Positions 1 through 47,631 of a stretch of 64,000 nt of DNA are shown here, one piece after another (position 1 is the stretch's first letter; every line of letters starts with the position of its first letter). Both the position numbers and the translations under genes were made by a program. Under the pieces are notes generated by a model. That model saw nothing but the letters and a program-made list of their open reading frames with translations, had not been told where the DNA came from and did no database searches. The DNA lies in the NCBI GenBank assembly GCA_951406725.2, contig OX597832.1, positions 19,282,001 to 19,346,000 on the forward strand, read 5' to 3'. This stretch comes from Octopus vulgaris. Its lineage: Eukaryota.

Positions 1-844
1 TCGTAAAACTTGTGCGGACAAGAAAAAGAGACAACGGGTACGTACTCAACTGTACCGGACTAATATGTTCACATTGACTGAAATCTTGCACCACTTGGAC
101 TAAATAAGTTAATAACCCGTGTAGATTAGCTAATAATCCTTGATCTGAAAGAATATGATGCTCAGTTCCAAGCTATTTCAGAGAAGATTTGGGAAAATCT
201 CAAGATGTGTACTTCTAAGAAAACAGATTGATTTTTTTTGTTTTTTTTTAGTCTTTTCCTATAAATATGAAAAATACTTAAATATGCCCTCAATACTACA
301 ATGCTTACATGAATAAACAGTGTATTCATGAGAATTTTTTTTGTGTGTTTTTTTGCTTTCTGTGAGAAGACATGACTTGGATTCTTGCGTTCAATTCCCG
401 AGTCAGTCAGTGAGTTGTGGTCTTCAGCAAGGTACGTCGTTTCACGTTTCTTCATTCTAATACAACACCAGCCAGTGCTCGGCACAGCCTTCTCCCCACC
501 TCAGCTATCGCGTCTTGAATGTTCTTTGGGTCAACATTAAAGGAATAATCAAGATGTATATGTCTACGACAATAAAAACAAACTTAAAACAGCGAAAGTA
601 TGGAATATATTACATTCAAACTTCACTCTGCTGATGTTAGACATTTCTGAAAGAAATCAAAGCCAAATCCTTATCATCTAAAACGTTATTGCAGTAATTC
701 TCGGTTCTTTTGAATTCGTGGCACATTAGAGATTAGATAAAGAAAAAAATAACTGCGGCTGCACCTTGCATGAGAAGTAAGGCAAATTATTTTGCAGTTA
801 AAGTTACAAATTAAATAATTACAAAAATATTTTTTCCTTTTAGC

Positions 845-2791: not shown

Positions 2792-3254
2792 CTGTAAACC
2801 AAAACCAATAAATGAATATTATTTTGCGGGCGGGAGATTTTATAATTTTCGTTTTGATATGTTTGCGTGGGGAGTGGAATAAAAAATAAAAACAAAACGA
2901 AGTGAAAACAGACACACAGAATTTTTTTTGTTATTATTTTGTATTGATTTTTCATGCTTTTTTTAGTTTTTTAAACAGATTTTTACGCCTTATAGGCTAT
3001 TTCCCTTCCTGTCAGGCATCAGAGCTGGGGAGAGAAATATAAGAGGGAGGCTGGATTAAGAGGCTACTATTTCCACACCCGCCTTATCCTGCTAAACGCA
3101 AATATAAAATAATAAAAGGAGAATAATCAAAGAGAGACACTACAAGAAAGCAAATATAAAAATGAATATTTTTAAAAGGATTAAATATATGTCTAAGTGC
3201 GTGCGTAGACGCGCATGTTTATACAAAACAAACAAACACATACACGCATTCTGT

Positions 3255-3855
3255 TATTCTTTTACTTGTTTCAATCATTTGACTGCGCCCATGCTGGAGC
3301 ACCTCCTTAGAGAGTTTTTAGTCGCAGAAATGAACCCCTTGACTTATTATATGTAAGTCTGGTACTTATTCAATTCGTCTCTTTAGACGAACCGCTAAGT
3401 TACTTGGCTGTAAACACACCGGCATCGGTTGTCAAGATGACATATATATATACATATAAGGATAAGATCGATATTGAAATACCGATCTTATCAGGTGGCC
3501 AGCATGGGAAAAAAACCTTCGAAGTTAATAATAATTATTAAAATTATAGGGTATCTAAGAGATACCACCACGCTGGAAATAGCAGCTAAAACTTGACTCT
3601 AAACCACATTAAAATGCTCATAGAGAACCAGGTGAGAAGATATTCAGATATCACATAAATACAAATATATATATATATATATATATGCAACATATCGTAT
3701 GTTGTATATATATATATATATATGACGGCCTTCCTTCAGCTTCTGTCTACGAAATCCATTCACAAGATTTTGGCCCATGGTGCCACGCAGTGAGACTAAA
3801 CCCAGGAACATGTGGTTGGGAAGCAAGCTTCTTACTACACAGTCATGCCTGCACC
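3255..3855 (-). mobile_element. SINE family A with about 210-bp foreign insert (3455-3665) in its internal microsatellite
   Basis: Tail half at 3255-3440 and head half at 3722-3855, separated by unrelated sequence. Confidence 0.85.
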
Positions 3856-4021
3856 TATGTATCATAATATTATATTAATAAATATAATACTGTTAATACT
3901 GGTTACACATTTTAGCACAAGGCCAGCAATTTCGGGGGAGGAGTAAATCGACTACTTATTGACCCAGAAAGGATGAAAGGCAAGTTCGACCTCAGCAGAA
4001 TTTGAACTCGGAACGTAGCGC

Positions 4022-4285
4022 ATGAGGATATCGAGTAAGCGATAAGAACTATGAAAAGTAACAAGTCAGTGGGATTCGATGACATGTTACCTGAGGTTGA
4101 AGAAAATGGTGCTAATCTGCTTCATTATCAACTGTCTCGCCTCCTTATCAAGTCTTAATAACTGAAGATGTACCAGTGGACCCTAAGGATTGAACAGTCT
4201 TTGCAATCCACGAAAAGAGAGATAATCAATAATAATGTGGAAACTATCTCAGACTATCTCTTGGTGGCAAATATCTCGATGTTTT
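4022..4285 (+). pseudogene. Decayed LINE reverse transcriptase N-terminal fragment
   Basis: Reads AIRTMKSNKSVGFDDMLPEV...EDVPVDPKD*...HEKRDNQ**CGNYLRLSL, matching the LINE K(A/S)xGxD...KKGD...CxNYRxISL block. Confidence 0.75.
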
Positions 4286-5129
4286 AAACAGCGCATGTCC
4301 ATATGCAGAAATTTACGCGGAATGTTATTTGTAGAATGTTTTAAGTTAAATAAATATCTCAACAATTTCGGATGCCCAAACCTGATGCGTCTTTAATTTT
4401 CGTTTTTTTTTTCTTTTCGTAAGTTATTCTCAGATAATTTCACTAGCTTTCAAATATAACTCGCTAACAAGTTATATTTTCATATTAGAAATACAGAAAG
4501 AGTGAGTGTGCTTGTAGAATGAAGCATTGAAGGACTTGTTTGAAGAGTCGTCATTTACTAAAACACAATCTGCTTGGCATTTTACTCAGCAAGTTCTTAC
4601 AAGAGGGTAATTTACATTAATATATCTACAGATATTTTGTTATTCTTAGAAGTTTTTGATTTCCGTGTTTACTAGCGATTTCGGAATGGTTAGAATTTGT
4701 CGATATATATATGCAAATTTGTATGTTGTAGCAAATGAAAACACGGCAATTTATTCGCTTAGATGTTCTCAACATGAACGGATATGAGGTAGCTTAACAC
4801 AGACAACTCGTTTAATCCCTATTCATTTTATTAATCTACTTATAGACAGTATTTCGTTGCGGGTATCAGATATATCGTCAAAAATGACTTGGTTTGAAGA
4901 AAGCAAATAGAATCAAAAGATTTTCTTTACCAAGTTCTTACTTGCTAGGGTTTGACTGAGAAAGTTTACCTATAAAAGCAGCTTTGCTATGGGATTTATA
5001 TATTTATAATAAACAAAGACTTAATTATATTAAAATTTATATCAAGAAGGTTTTCAAATATTTGACCAGCAATAAAACCTAATTACTTATTTACTGAGAT
5101 TGTTTACAACATATTCGTTGAAAGTAGAA

Positions 5130-5362
5130 AGACTTCCGGGTTACAAACAGTCGCCATCTTTATTTGGGTCGCTTATGATAGAAGGACAATTATCATATTT
5201 TGTTGAGAAATTGAATTCCTTTCTGCTCTAGCAAATTGGCTTGCAATTTTAGAGGAGCAGCCTGCGAATTTGTTTCCACGAGAGTTCCGGACCCCTGTTA
5301 TGAACTCATTTGCATACAGCCAATCAGAGCTCAGCTATCAAACTAATTTATGACCACATGAC
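5130..5362. promoter_or_regulatory. Candidate promoter: ETS, YY1, octamer, CCAAT, Hox/Cdx-like and E-box motifs
   Basis: ACTTCCGG 5132-5139, CGCCATCTT 5152-5160, ATTTGCAT 5308-5315, AGCCAATCAG 5318-5327, TAATTTATGAC 5344-5354, CACATG 5355-5360, all in repeat-free sequence. Confidence 0.55.
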
Positions 5363-5635
5363 AAGTGATGGGCGATACGATAATGTCACTTGGGTAAAGA
5401 ATCACCATGCTTCATTTCTCTTTTAAGAATACTCGTTGTTCTTGTTCTTGTTTCAACCATGGTTGCCTTTGCGTAGTTATTTGTGTCGTTGTTTACTTTG
5501 TGAAGCATAAAGGAGAGAGGGCTGCAACCACATCACATTTTCTATCACATTTTCCCCATCCACACCTTTACTATAGGAGCCCTAACAAAATCTGACAATA
5601 GGTATCGCTGCAAATCTATCTAATTACTTGTCTCC

Positions 5636-24619: not shown

Positions 24620-25456
24620 GTGTTTGTGTGCGCATGTGTTGATAGGTCTAGTTATCATAGATTGCTGCACTTTAGGAAACGGAATTAGTTTTAACATTAT
24701 TAAACTATAAGGAACGCGGGAACCTGGCAGAATCATTAGCACTCCGGACAAAATGCTTAGCGACATTTCGACCGCTTTTAGGTTCAAATACCACAATAGT
24801 CGAGTTTGTCTTTCATCGCTTCGGGGAGGGGGGGTCAGTAAAAAAACAGCAGAACGAGTTAATAACTGAGGTCGATGTAATCGATTTATTTTATACACCG
24901 AAATTGCTGGCCTTGTGCCAATTTTTGAAACCAATATTATTTATCTGTAAATATGATTATAAATTATTCATATCTGGTCGTCAAATGATAACAACGAAAA
25001 CTGAGAAATCCCTTAAATAAATATTATTCTACGTTGTCAATATGCTTGGTTCTATATATATACATACATACATACATACATACATACATACATACATACA
25101 TACATACATACATACGTACATATATCTATGTAAAACGTTTAAATTATATTTCGTCCTTTAATTTGGAGCATTCCAAAAAAAGATTTCTAACATAGATTCT
25201 TCATATATTTTGCTGGTAGCTTACTGGCGTAAAATTGCGAATATGAAAATAATACTTGTATAGGGTGCGTTGTGTCTTTCCATAAATTCACATAACACAC
25301 CATATACAATATATATATATATAATACATACAAACATATATATAAATATATATGTATTTACGTTCATACACATACGTGCATATATGCGTGCATGTATAAA
25401 GCATAGAATACCCTGTTTTCTGTATATTATTAATGTTATTCTTTTATTATATCATT

Positions 25457-25828
25457 ATTTTACTTGTTTCAGTAATTTGACTGCTGCCATGCTGGAGAAC
25501 CACCATTAGTCGAGCCTAGTAACTTATTCTATCGGTCTCTTTTGCTGAACCGCTAAGTAATGGGGGCGTAAATGCACCATCATCGGTTGTCAGGCAATGG
25601 TGGGTTAACAAACACAGATATACAAACATATATACACTCACACATACATATATATATGTATATATACGACGGGCTTCTTTCAGTTTTCGCCTAACAAATC
25701 CACTCACAAGATTTTGGTCGACCCGAGTCTATAGCAGAAGACACTTGCCCAAGTTGCCACGAAGTGGGACTGAACCCGGAACCATGTGGTTGGTAAGCAA
25801 GCTACTTATCACACAGCCACTCCTGCGC
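25457..25828 (-). mobile_element. SINE family A, near full length with small internal deletion
   Basis: Matches 845-1246 but lacks about 30 bp after TAGTCGAGC. Confidence 0.9.
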
Positions 25829-26400
25829 ATTTATTTATTTATTTACGCATAGATATACACGTGAATGTATACATGTATATGACTGTGCAGAAGAAATACT
25901 TTGGACAGAGAACAGTATCGTAAACACCAGATTTCTCGAGTGTAATACGTTGGTAATGCTTCAAGAGGTAAAGCATTGGATAAAATGTTCTAAAGCAAAT
26001 ACAGATAAGATTTATGTTAATCTTGGATAACACATTACGTAGTTTTGCTTTCTGTTATCTCATATAGAAAAAAATATTTATCGATAATCCGCAACGAGAA
26101 ATCGGAGATAGTTGAATTTAATTTGTTATGTATAGAATGCATGTGCGATCGCGTGTGTTAGTGTGTGTCGTATATATGGCCGTTACTGGCTCGTTCAGAA
26201 GAGGTGCTTATAACTTTTTTTGCAAATAAGTGCATCGTGTTCTGTCCTGCTATATATATCATGTTAGATTAGGTATACCATCGTAGTTTCGTTTTGTATA
26301 GCGACCATGCTGTAGCAAGTAATATACATATATATAATATATATATATGTATACGTATATATATATATATATATATATACTTTATTTAAATGTATATATA

Positions 26401-26620
26401 CTTTATTTAAAGCAGCAGAAAATTCTACAAAACCTGTTACTCTGAGTTTCGCGTTGCCGTTCATCGGACAGTTTTTGCTAGAAAAAACTGTCCGATGAAC
26501 GGCAACGCGAAACTCAGAGTAACAGGTTTTGTAGAATTGTCTGCTGCTTTAAATAAAGCATATTACTCTACCACTGGTATTTGAATACTCTTTTTTTCCA
26601 CCTTGTTTCACATTTATGTG
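26401..26620 (+). mobile_element. Penelope-like pseudo-LTR fragment with inverted partial duplication, embedded between (TA)n and (TG)n/(TATG)n
   Basis: Arms 26401-26476 and 26483-26558 are reverse complements with 1 mismatch around loop GCTAGA. Contains the hammerhead motif, with unique tail to about 26620. An inverted pLTR plus hammerhead is a known PLE hallmark. Confidence 0.6.
26488..26525 (+). ncRNA. Minimal type I hammerhead ribozyme motif (Penelope-like element type); mirror copy on - strand at 26434-26471
   Basis: CTGT (stem I) - CCGATGA core (C at position 4) - A CG GCAA CG C (stem II with GNRA loop, A.C closing mismatch) - GAAA - CTCAGAG - TA - ACAG (stem I partner). Stem III is quasi-palindromic (ACTC A GAGT). 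GUA cleavage triplet at 26519-26521. Confidence 0.72.
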
Positions 26621-28894
26621 TGTGTGTATGTATGTATGTATAACCAAATTGTTGCATCATGTTTTTACCTATATCTTTTTTCTTCTTTTCCTTTCGTCTG
26701 TTACTTGACATGTTGCTTAGAGCCCCATATTTGACCGCTTGTTGGAGTATTTTCGATTCATTTTTCAGTCACTTCCTATTTTATTGTGAACATGATCAGC
26801 AAGAAGAAGAAGAAGAAGAAGAAAACCAACAACAAGAACAAAAACGACGACGACGACAACAACAACCATAACAATCAGCAACTGTATGTAATTAGAGCTT
26901 TATACATCGACCCCGACAGAGTGAAAGATCAAGTTGATCACAGCAGAATTTGAACTCAGAACGTAAAGTGCATGAATGTATACCGCATTGCATTTTATCC
27001 GATAGTCAAACCATTCTGCCATTACAACGGCCGAACAATGACAAAAGACTATAAATTGGGCAAATGGCTTGCAGCTCTCTGTTTGTAATAAGGGGTGGGT
27101 TTGTTTATGTTCTCAGCTCCTGTGTAAGACTGGTATTATATTTTGTTGAAACCGGAGGAATGAAAATCAAAGTCGACTTCAGCAGGATTCGAACTCACCA
27201 AGCTAAGATACCCAGCAAATGATGCAAGTTATTTTAAGTGACGCTCACACTCTTTTGTCTGTATAATCTACCAATTTCTGAATTAATGGACCTTGAGCAT
27301 CGATCCAACGAAACGTAGGACTATCTATGTGAATGACCTAATCAAAGTGCTGGAAATAGCAGCCACATCTCTCGAGTAATAATCCACCGTTAAAAATGTA
27401 GACAGACCTGAAGATTTCTCCATGCCTGAAACAAAAACAAAACAAAAAAAAGATGGAAAAAAAGGAAAAGAAAGATAGGGACCAAATGACCATAGATATA
27501 AGGCCTTATTTTCTAAGGCAGTGTGAATAGTGCTGACCGGAGGTGTAACAAGTCCATTTATCTCCTATAATAAAATATGAAGTAACGTTACTGTATAAAT
27601 ATTTTATATATATTTTTACATATGTTCAGTGCTTGTATGTACGGATATGGTTTAATGGGAGCCCCTAATTTCAGCTATCACAAACTAATGAGATGAACCA
27701 AGGCAGGGTCGCTACTAATATCTCTCTTATCAAAGATGCACATTTTGTAACATCATAAGATAAATCAATGAATGCACACAGCTCCATTTCTGTCCCATTT
27801 AGTCGCGCATATACACTGTAACTAACTTGGAGTGTGTATATGTGAGTGATCATGCATTTTTCTCCAAGCATTTCGTCCGGCATGCTAACGTTACCTATTT
27901 CTTTATTGCCCACCAGGGGCTAAAAATAGAGGGGGCTCACAAGGACATTAACTGGCAGAATCGTTAGCACGTTGGTCGAAATATTTAGGAAAATTTTGTT
28001 CGTCTTGATGTTCTGAGTTCAAATTACGCTGAGGTAGAGTTTGCCTTTGATTCTCTCGAGATCGATAAAATAAATACCTGTTGAGCACTGAAGTCGATTA
28101 CATCAACTTACTTCATACTCCAAAATTGCTGGCCTTGTGCCAAACCTTCGGGTCAATATATGACCCTGTGTATACAATTAAGTGCTGCCCTTTACTCATC
28201 ACCCTCTTCAAATTTAGCTGTAAATGTACGTAAAATATGTGAGTGTGCAGGCATGTCAATGTGTGTCTGTATGCTTCCGAATTTTCGACTGCTTCGACGA
28301 AAAGCGCTAAGGTTAATCAACAGAATTACGTGTTCAATAAATTAAAGTTCTAGCAGTCAGGTATTTCACTGACATGTAAAATATTTACATAATACTTAGG
28401 AAGAAACAACGTGTCAGAAACGGTAAGAAAGCCGTACCTTTGATGTACATCTACAGTAATTCCATCAACGGACTTCAGTGCAATTTTACTCAGAGAGATT
28501 ATGTCAATCTATGGCAAGGGTAAAAGACACTCTCCAAAATGCCACGAAATGAGATTAAATCTACGAACATGTGTTGATGAAGCAATTTACTTAAAATTTC
28601 GTCGAAGCTACTTAAGGGGAAATGTATATGGAGTTTTATTACGGACGGTATGAGGTTCGCACCAATACTCAAATGTACAAATAAACGAAAAAGAATGTAG
28701 CAAAAAATACGCACACATACACGCACGTGCATAGGCGAGGGCACTTTTATACACACACACAGACATATATATATGTGGGTCTCGGTGTGTGTATACGTAT
28801 ATCTATCTATCAAACTATTTGTATGTAGGAGTATATGTATAATTTTAGATTTTTTATGCTTTTACTCGTTTCAGGCATGCAATCGTATATATGC

Positions 28895-45147: not shown

Positions 45148-47631
45148 ACATATATGAATGTATACATGTTTATATATATATGTATATAGACATATATGTA
45201 TGTATATATAATCATGTATGTTCGCGCGCGTGTGTGAAGAATTTACAAATCATTATGAAATACTACAGTCAAAAGTTTCATGTGACGTGTAACATTTTTC
45301 CCGATTGGCAGGCCAGTTAAAAAAAGACAGATTGTGGATCTTAAGGCAGATTTTACGATTACCAAAATACATAGGACGAATTAGATGAAGATATAGGAAA
45401 TTATAACACGATGGTTACAAGTAGGAAATCGTTACTGATAGTGATCACATCGATTAAGGATAATCTGTAACTAGGCACCGATAATAACATGAAAGTACTC
45501 AAACCTCAGAAAAAAATGTGTATTAAAAGTTTATGAACGTAATCGTACAAGGTTCAAAACCGAGTATCTTCCAGTTCCAGAGGATTAAACTGAAGAACTA
45601 ACAAGGTACTGTTCGTACTAAACGAATGCACCAATCCCTGTTCAGTACTTAACAAAACATATGTTACGCCTATGTGCACGAATGTGAAATAGGTCCACAC
45701 ACCTATAACTGAGTATAGAATGTGTGTCTGCATGTATATGTGTGTGTGTGTGTGTGTGTGTATGTTTGTATACAGAAATATATCTACACGTCATATATAT
45801 ACACACATATATATAAACGTTACATATACTCATATATATATATATACATGCATACATAAATATATATGCATACATACGTATTCATACATACATACATATA
45901 CATACATATATATATATTATTACATATATACATATATATATATACATACATATATACATGTATGTATATACATACATATATACATATATATACATACATA
46001 TATACATATATATACGTACATATATACATATATACATATATATATATACGTACATATATACATATATATATATACATATATGCATACATTTATACATATA
46101 TACATACATACATATATACATACATATATACATACATATATACATACATACATACATACATACACATATAATCAGTACAATCGTTTTGATCTCTCTAGCA
46201 TCGATCTCACACGGGTGGGAAACTTAAGAACAGGTTCAGAAGCAGATGCATCTCTTCGGGTAATAAATAGATATAATACGTTAGAATAACAGTTCCGCCA
46301 TGCATCTTCTCAAGGATCGATGCAAGATGAGTCGAAACAATTGTAGTGATAACTAATAATTTTCGTATCTTCCATCTTATATTAACCAAATATATAACGA
46401 ATATATATTATTGTCTAATAATAACAATAATAATAATAATAATAATAATAATAATTTCATATCTATATATATATATATATACACACACACATATTCAAGT
46501 CTGCATTTATGTATGTACACAGACACGCGGGCAGGATACTTATGGTTGTTGTAAATATGTATATCGCCTTATCTCTCAGACAAGTACGAGTGTTTGTGTT
46601 AATATACAACGATGCATCCGAATTTGGTTCCCATGTTTCCTCATTCCACAGTGTTTTTATATTGCCTCTTGGTAATCCTAGTACACGATTGACAACGAAG
46701 ACCAATATAAAACAAATGACCGGTCACAAAGTTGAACAAAGAAATGTATGCATTTACAGATGTACATACACACAGACCACATGAAACTCATATATATGTA
46801 CATACACACACACTGTCTTTCTCTCTGTATATATTTGTATATATATATTTATACTTACATACATACATATGTATATTGATGCATACATACATATGTATAT
46901 ATTGATTCATACACATATATATATATATATATATTGATTCATATATATATATATATTGATTCATATATATATATATATATATATACTTACATATACATAT
47001 ACATACACACATACACACGACCATGTGAGAAAGCAAATGAATGAAGGTAGTACTCAATATGTATGGTTGGATTGAAATGTATTCAATAGGTATTTGACGG
47101 AACTCAACATGACTTCAAGGTTCGTAGACGTCTAGAGCACGCCCAATCCATCAGATGTTCAGCATAAGAGCCTTATTTTGCAGAGAAAATTTTTAGTCAA
47201 GTCAAGCTGAGTCGAGCTATTGGGCACACGCGCATACAAACACAGGCGCACCCACACACGAACCCATATGCACATATCTTTGAATATATATACGTGCGTG
47301 TTGAGGTGTATGTAATATGCATTGCGTGTGAGTCTGTAACTGTCAAACATGTGATTCTTAGGATTATGTGAAGGAATCAGAAGTTACCAATATTTGCTTT
47401 CGGATATTGAGAAGACATGTTTAGTATAAAACACATATTACTATTTTATGTGACATATATAAAACATTATGTGTATGTTTTATAAATCGTATATAAAATA
47501 GAAAAACGGCTCCAGTTTATTTCATTTTGTATGATTTATGCATTGAACTACGCAAATAATGTATACTCGCGAATATGCGCAAATTTATGCAAGTAATATA
47601 AGCACATACAATTTATGTACTCATGCCACCA

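Follow-up and report, generated by a model that had tools for sequence, protein, structure and literature searches.

Layout of the palindrome

A near-perfect palindrome with two back-to-back predicted hammerhead ribozymes inside a microsatellite raises the questions of what kind of element it belongs to and how such a structure is made. We analysed one at positions 26401-26620 of the window, by which we mean the whole 64,000-nt stretch of Octopus vulgaris DNA (Table 1). The element is numbered such that window position 26483, the first A of stem I, is position 1, which places the predicted cut at 39|40. As predicted, the arms comprise 76 bp each with one mismatch: 26401-26476 pairs with 26483-26558, and the sole difference is T/G at arm position 57. 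The 241-nt region folds with -138.5 kcal/mol (z = -22.6), and 0 of 200 shuffled sequences folded as well. The supposed 6-nt loop, GCTAGA, does lie between the arms, but it is element sequence: the left arm is 6 nt longer and reaches element position -5, so that the true arms measure 82 and 76 nt. The right arm extends into the 71-nt tail of the family, of which the last ~10 nt are absent at ~26620. The predicted insertion into a microsatellite was confirmed as well, with (TA)n as target.

Table 1. Features of the palindromic insertion and its borders in the window.
Feature	Position	Strand	Basis
(TA)n-type microsatellite target; at 26380-26390 it holds 11 nt that repeat the element end	26322-26400	.	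TRF, sequence
Inverted arm without tail, element 76 back to -5; its end lies at the first putative RT start site	26401-26482	-	
Left predicted minimal type I hammerhead, U4C core, predicted cut 26438/26437	26429-26476	-	
Junction GCTAGA, left-arm sequence at CTAG microhomology; the junction of locus L007 is identical	26477-26482	.	
Right predicted minimal type I hammerhead, predicted cut after 26521	26483-26530	+	
Right hammerhead, stem I	26488-91/26522-25	+	
Right hammerhead, core CCGAUGA	26492-98	+	
Right hammerhead, stem II	26500-07	+	
Right hammerhead, GAAA	26509-12	+	
Right hammerhead, palindromic stem III	26512-20	+	
Sense arm, element 1-76, subfamily S4 (C4, 11.1=C, position 51=A)	26483-26558	+	
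Tail, element 77 to ~138 of 147	26559-26620	+	
Right-flank microsatellite (GT)n/(ATGT)n	26621-26641	.	sequence

All hammerhead parts named in the original prediction, including the cut site, are present in the sequence. Each arm holds CUGU/ACAG, CCGAUGA, CG-GCAA-CG, GAAA, ACUC-A-GAGU and GUA; the left hammerhead is identical to the right one over 48 nt, and the layout matches the Hydra hammerhead table. A single arm gave a z-score of about 0, and its hammerhead fold (-0.3 versus -4.4 kcal/mol for the MFE) is thus not the minimum-energy fold. The self-duplex of stem III, at -7.4 kcal/mol, fits the expectation for a dimer-type motif. Comparison with the Rfam hammerhead models, which had been proposed as a check, gave no match at E<=10 in three scans for either the window arm or a canonical-core copy, and the hammerhead call therefore rests on the likeness to published Hydra hammerheads. 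Matches to Rfam miRNA models were rejected, as they reflect the long hairpin alone. Judged by its letters, each arm carries a predicted minimal, dimer-type type I hammerhead with a U4C core, and the predicted combination of such a motif with an inverted partial copy is supported. Cleavage would need an RNA dimer or the help of a protein and would be weak in U4C subfamilies, and a transcript spanning both arms would lock the hammerhead inside the 76-bp hairpin. Dimeric hammerheads of Penelope-like elements (PLEs) are a subject of Lunse et al. 2017. Minimal PLE hammerheads are reported to cleave poorly and as dimers only (PMC4209133).

The window copy is an ordinary example of a large family and not unique. 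Using tblastn with two element proteins, no coding partner of the element was found in the window, and a search for host genes gave 0 Pfam matches for 62 of the 96 filtered window ORFs. A weak match to the element 3' UTR (68% over 121 nt, E 1e-6), maybe a low-complexity chance hit, lies at 45884-45996. Two other abundant short repeats, SINE-like and unclassified, occur in the window (24724-24921, 26900-27000 and 27952-28143; 25523-25830) and also border many of the fetched family loci.

The element family

The arm proved to be a repeat: an initial search gave 519 candidates, and the 25-mer at its 3' end has 5,462 exact matches genome-wide. Upstream of the arm, we found a 3' UTR of ~1.2 kb preceded by an ORF of about 710 codons, and the long copies L097, L099 and L104 carry ORF, 3' UTR and the same hammerhead joined to each other. 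The Penelope-like nature of the element, for which an RT/GIY-YIG ORF beside the hammerhead was to be sought, is borne out by these longer copies. In the rare copies L098, L101 and L197, the tail continues through the 5' UTR to an ATG at about +215.

The single ORF encodes RT followed by a C-terminal GIY-YIG-type endonuclease, as read from the broken natural copies L097, L099, L088 and L069; none of the copies read had an uninterrupted full-length ORF. It comprises the RWK and DKT motifs (RRLRWKAFF and NSDKTRNLY in L097), YRDDG and a CxCX5C linker, which reads CNCK.ESSC in the basal subfamily and CNFK in most younger copies. The E and N of the endonuclease are flanked by CxxC and CxH (CNLC..E..N..CRH), and CCHH is, by eye, absent. 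The Hydra clade has the same RWK, DKT, YRDDG and CxCX5C motifs, the same CxxC/CxH at E/N, a C-terminal endonuclease and (TA)n targets (PMC8557442); we judged this likeness by motifs and the published supplement alignment. Homologues of the element protein are numerous (3,825 of ~700 aa at E<=1e-30, best 56% identity), and Pfam gave no curated match for the element proteins and three homologues. The window palindrome is a truncated insertion of a coding Hydra-clade PLE, in place of the self-standing non-autonomous or retrozyme family that had been proposed. Its predicted youth agrees with a divergence of about 1-2% at non-CpG sites.

Several features set the family apart. Published Hydra elements are generally <3 kb (a tendency, not a rule) with tails of 30-40, whereas the unit here is estimated at about 3.6 kb, with the 1.2-kb 3' UTR and the 71-nt tail. 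The hammerhead of Hydra-1_Obim, a published octopus family, is a different one, and in one block compared by eye about 38 of 82 residues (about 46%) are identical; the window element therefore belongs to another family. Unlike the published Hydra CxCX5C, the second linker Cys is Phe in most younger copies (the set of L198-L210, L097 and L099), and (TA)n targeting was kept; this is relevant to the targeting role proposed for the linker.

Other relatives and rearranged copies were seen in the same genome. Degraded further Hydra-like families with 27-52% protein identity occur at L115:8292-9484 and L117:8231-9888. Another PLE fragment (L046 / L065:4340-4951, minus strand) has, by eye, a Neptune-type CxxxxCxxC linker and a CCHH-like endonuclease; it has its own inverted repeat and adjoins a family copy. 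L098 (~5146-5490) and L101 (~3030-4730; G000:C17:22.36-22.39 Mb) hold a tandem array in which the ORF end is fused directly to element position ~60, with loss of 3' UTR and hammerhead, and the sequence continues from there into the next ORF. At L116 (G000:C29:21178000-21187900), one palindromic insertion is present three times at a spacing of 2.3-2.65 kb, always with a dead CCAA core; this is a local tandem duplication.

Subfamilies and the U4C core

Five sites within positions 1-48 vary between subfamilies: hammerhead position 4 (U or C), N7, the GNRA loop at its second base, 11.1 (A, G, U or C), and the bulge in stem I. Apart from position 4, all of them (N7, loop II, 11.1, stem I bulge) are structurally tolerant sites, a pattern suggestive of selection on the fold. 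With 1 variable site, however, positions 49-147 are conserved no less than the core, so that the expected conservation of the core beyond its flanks did not hold for the 3' flank.

Two traits had been put forward as subfamily marks. The A.C at 10.1/11.1 does not serve as one: the position is A, G, T or C depending on the subfamily, and in published Hydra motifs stem II is likewise flanked on both sides by an unpaired base (PMC8557442). C4 is a genuine, inherited variant. It does not extend to the whole family, as the canonical CUGAUGA core (S1, the largest subfamily) accounts for 3,458 of 5,582 exact motifs. The U4C core is found in the window copy (S4: C4, 11.1=C) and in S2-S4, which lack the canonical CUGANGA. 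A count that had made C4 appear family-wide (797 CCGA versus 51 CTGA and 45 CCAA) was rejected, as its patterns left out the 11.1=A and 11.1=G subfamilies; read from the symmetric 51/45 count, CTGA is CpG decay, inside the 11.1=T/C subfamilies only.

A tree of 20 endonuclease regions placed S1 within C4 copies, with support of 100/99 for both the S1 clade and S1+S2. By outgroup residues, the C4 subfamily S3b (only 2 copies) is basal: it retains the linker Cys, as do 59 of 60 outgroups, and agrees with P0003 at 5 sites versus 1. U4C is probably ancestral in the family and S1 a reversion to the canonical core, which could be neutral because C4-G5 is a CpG. Subfamily age alone did not resolve the order of U4 and C4 (S1 versus S2, p=0.13 in the unbiased sample and 0.03 with all loci). 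Contigs from four runs, each labelled as a different organism, contained both C4 and U4. U4C occurs in 0 of 26 published Hydra rows, for which the descriptor required CUGA, and here in several subfamilies. A natural viroid variant with the same core change (cited in Perreault et al. 2011, PMC3088659) is reported to be much less active in vitro but sufficient in vivo, the viroid being still infectious. Unlike in the viroid, U4C is here found in thousands of retroelement copies and was apparently reverted in one subfamily.

Ends, tails and pairs

Insertion ends were analysed in the first 100 of the 5,462 25-mer matches by position, which cover the first 71 Mb of contig C1. With 8 loci removed as overlaps or duplicates, and counting only arms that start no later than position 48, the sample comprised 68 loci with 107 arms, in which older copies are under-counted because of the exact 25-mer and the restriction to these 71 Mb. 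The 3' ends are fixed at 76 or 147, and most copies shown continue from there into (TA)n. We found 38 head-to-head pairs and 31 unpaired arms. The 71-nt tail is present on exactly one arm in 37 of the 38 pairs, and two whole hammerheads back to back, as in the window, in 13; by extrapolation from the latter, there would be roughly 700 loci with double-hammerhead palindromes.

The 5' ends pile up just before stem I. Among the 107 arms, 48 start at -8..+5, 25 at 6..35, 9 at 36..44, 9 at -58..-9 and 16 further upstream. The rate of 6.1% per nt at -8..+5 is about 7-fold above that elsewhere (0.86% at 6..48, 0.91% at -58..-9 and 0.97% around the cut site at 36..44), with a p-value of 1e-18 that is inflated because the hotspot was picked after seeing the data. 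Its left edge is sharp (0 arms at -13..-9, 1 at -14). Unpaired arms show the pile-up too: 10 of the 31 start at -8..+5, 2 at -27, 9 at 7..39 and 10 past -58, which amounts to 10 of the 21 short ones. Position -4 alone accounts for 11 arms, and part of the peak reflects CTAG microhomology. Ends at the predicted cut site, hinted at by L015 and L103, were rejected, as the 9 of 107 arms found there correspond to the background rate.

The sequence at -26..0 (e.g. L030:1475-1500) resembles a 3' splice site, with TTGAY, a pyrimidine tract and TAG before stem I, and the Drosophila Penelope intron ends at helix I (PMC4209133). As a cause of the peak, such a site directly ahead of stem I (TTCTAG) was rejected because the arms usually keep the AG.

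Among the first 100 of 322 listed matches, we counted by eye 13 perfect palindromes in which both arms end at -7/-6 via an AT common to the two, as well as 5 junctions made up of (TA)n, G and position -7. In the control (first 100 of 161 rows), G was found 5 times at -7 versus 4 times at other starts (-5, -9, -10 and -10), and junctions with C at -8 were found 4-5 times. The excess is modest, and a cap-G signature at -7 is a hint. We take position -7 to be the A of an initiator-like YYANWYY motif. Drosophila Penelope has an internal pLTR promoter with initiator (PMC2377424), and untemplated G in L1/SVA has been attributed to cap copying (PMC3287187).

Both arms belong to the same subfamily in 28 of 35 listed pairs. 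One discordant pair is a cross-pairing of neighbouring palindromes, another results from an alignment overrun, and in most of the remainder the arms differ at a single site. A private variant is common to both arms in two pairs (L007 and L130). In L019 (G000:C7:107193699-107193929), one arm is canonical S1 and the other U4C S3, with 3 diagnostic differences, suggestive of two templates or later conversion and of co-activity of the subfamilies. From the arm sequences, one or two RNA templates per palindrome both seem possible.

Origin of the palindromes

Our preferred reading, with a probability of about 0.65, is that of a short non-coding insertion, made of two internally primed cDNAs that ran off the likely capped 5' end of an uncleaved RNA and were joined head to head. 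Transcription would start near -7 from a pLTR promoter. The GIY-YIG endonuclease would nick both strands of (TA)n, and each nick would prime at one start site, one at 76 and the other at 147; since the hammerhead lies near the 5' end of the next unit, RT must start internally. With the hammerhead uncut, the cDNAs would reach the RNA end after about 80 and 155 nt and anneal there via 1-4 nt of microhomology (AT, CTAG). The window copy would be one such product, with its left arm running to -5 and its right arm from +1. Hammerhead cleavage would likely be unneeded for making the template.

A precedent is PAc (Poseidon, Anolis; Frangieh et al. 2024, PMC11167929), which has a hammerhead near the ORF start, starts RT internally in vitro at two sites bounding the tail, primes both DNA strands and has uncleaved RNA as its main substrate. 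Unlike in PAc, the hammerhead lies wholly in the 5' UTR here, with start sites located 37 and 108 nt beyond the cut. Moreover, the PAc evidence is in vitro and ours genomic. The excerpts of that paper do not describe run-off at a fixed 5' end or head-to-head joining, and later transposition steps were left unvalidated.

More tentatively, and with odds against it, the palindromes could be read as a fossil record: of run-off by a dimeric RT-endonuclease, and of a U4C knock-down followed by a revertant, such that cleavage helps but is not required. Two-strand priming, run-off and cDNA joining would then explain the inverted pLTR and the one-sided tail, and the spread of U4C, followed by a canonical revertant as the largest subfamily, would argue that cleavage is helpful and dispensable.

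The pile-up of 5' ends may also have arisen on a longer RNA, as a stop or join hotspot of RT at a weak upstream hairpin or at self-complementary CTAG/AT. Many junctions do show CTAG or AT microhomology, the starts scatter across -8..+5, and the sequence has a short imperfect inverted repeat at -29..-6. We nevertheless consider this unlikely, as the left edge of the pile-up is sharp, unpaired arms joined to (TA)n also begin at -8..-1, and an untemplated G is present at -8.

That the short copies amplify themselves as a non-autonomous retrozyme-like element, via hammerhead cleavage and circular RNA, is very improbable. Short copies are the majority, a few junctions recur exactly (L003, L009 and L016), and animal retrozymes have been proposed to be pLTR-derived (10.64898/2026.07.22.740005). 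Like non-LTR retrozymes, the element is non-coding in its short form, with a type I hammerhead of pLTR origin. Unlike with those, head-to-tail arrays of the short unit were not seen in the 68 sampled loci (a look for tandem copies had been suggested as a check), and the ends do not lie at the cut site, where no excess was found. In addition, the junctions vary, and the subfamily letters are common to short and ORF-bearing copies.

We give little more than passing credence to a single priming event after which one cDNA folds back and copies itself. Near-symmetric junctions and the private variants shared within L007 and L130 would suit it, but the arms end at different fixed sites (76 versus 147), their 5' ends are independent, and the L019 arms differ at 3 diagnostic sites. 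Near-perfect palindromes are a known artefact class. An assembly or library fold-back chimera is nonetheless practically dismissed by the one-base difference between the arms, their different flanks, 38 comparable pairs with varied junctions beside 31 unpaired arms in the 68 loci, opposite-strand joints in contigs of other runs, and the published occurrence of the structure in Hydra elements (PMC8557442).

Relation to known elements

Inverted 5'-truncated copies with a one-sided tail are typical of PLEs (Craig et al. 2021, PMC8557442), and for Hydra elements such truncated inversions, insertion into (TA)n and near-identical hammerheads have been published before. According to the same source, Hydra-2_aMil agrees with the window family in stem I, the stem III arms and the cleavage base, Penelope-3_HM shares its ACUC-A-GAGU stem III, and Penelope-13_HM, as here, bears hammerheads on both strands and an inverted 5' copy. 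Minimal PLE hammerheads (Cervera and de la Pena 2014, PMC4209133) share the short helix I, the palindromic helix III and the dimer type, and hammerhead pairs on opposite strands, separated by 100-700 bp, had been described in Schistosoma. Unlike those hammerheads, which have a long helix II, the ones described here have a helix II of 2-3 bp with a GNRA loop, no conserved G10.1-C11.1, and U4C.

In the literature excerpts searched, mostly outside subscription journals, we found neither the window family nor a U4C PLE family nor fixed-5'-end run-off as an origin of PLE palindromes. Craig et al. name the role of the hammerhead in endonuclease-bearing PLEs and the origin of inverted and tandem ends as open questions (PMC8557442). 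Thousands of dated junctions, together with matched U4/C4 subfamilies, make both testable.

Signals at the RNA level

The insertions seed the genome with near-perfect hairpins of 80-150 bp, and any transcripts of these would serve as substrates for ADAR or Dicer. In sequence runs with four different organism labels (none on record as RNA, two guessed to be RNA), the summed contig depth rose 3- to 7-fold at -5..+5 in each of the four. Only the two guessed-RNA runs had A>G at positions 39/40 (L033:1664-1665, the cleavage-site A and the next base), at 10-16% of the depth versus 0.5% or less in two large runs; they also show scattered T>C, represent different organisms without matched DNA and differ at non-editing sites as well. 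This hints at A-to-I editing at 39/40, which, if it occurs, would destroy the GUA site.
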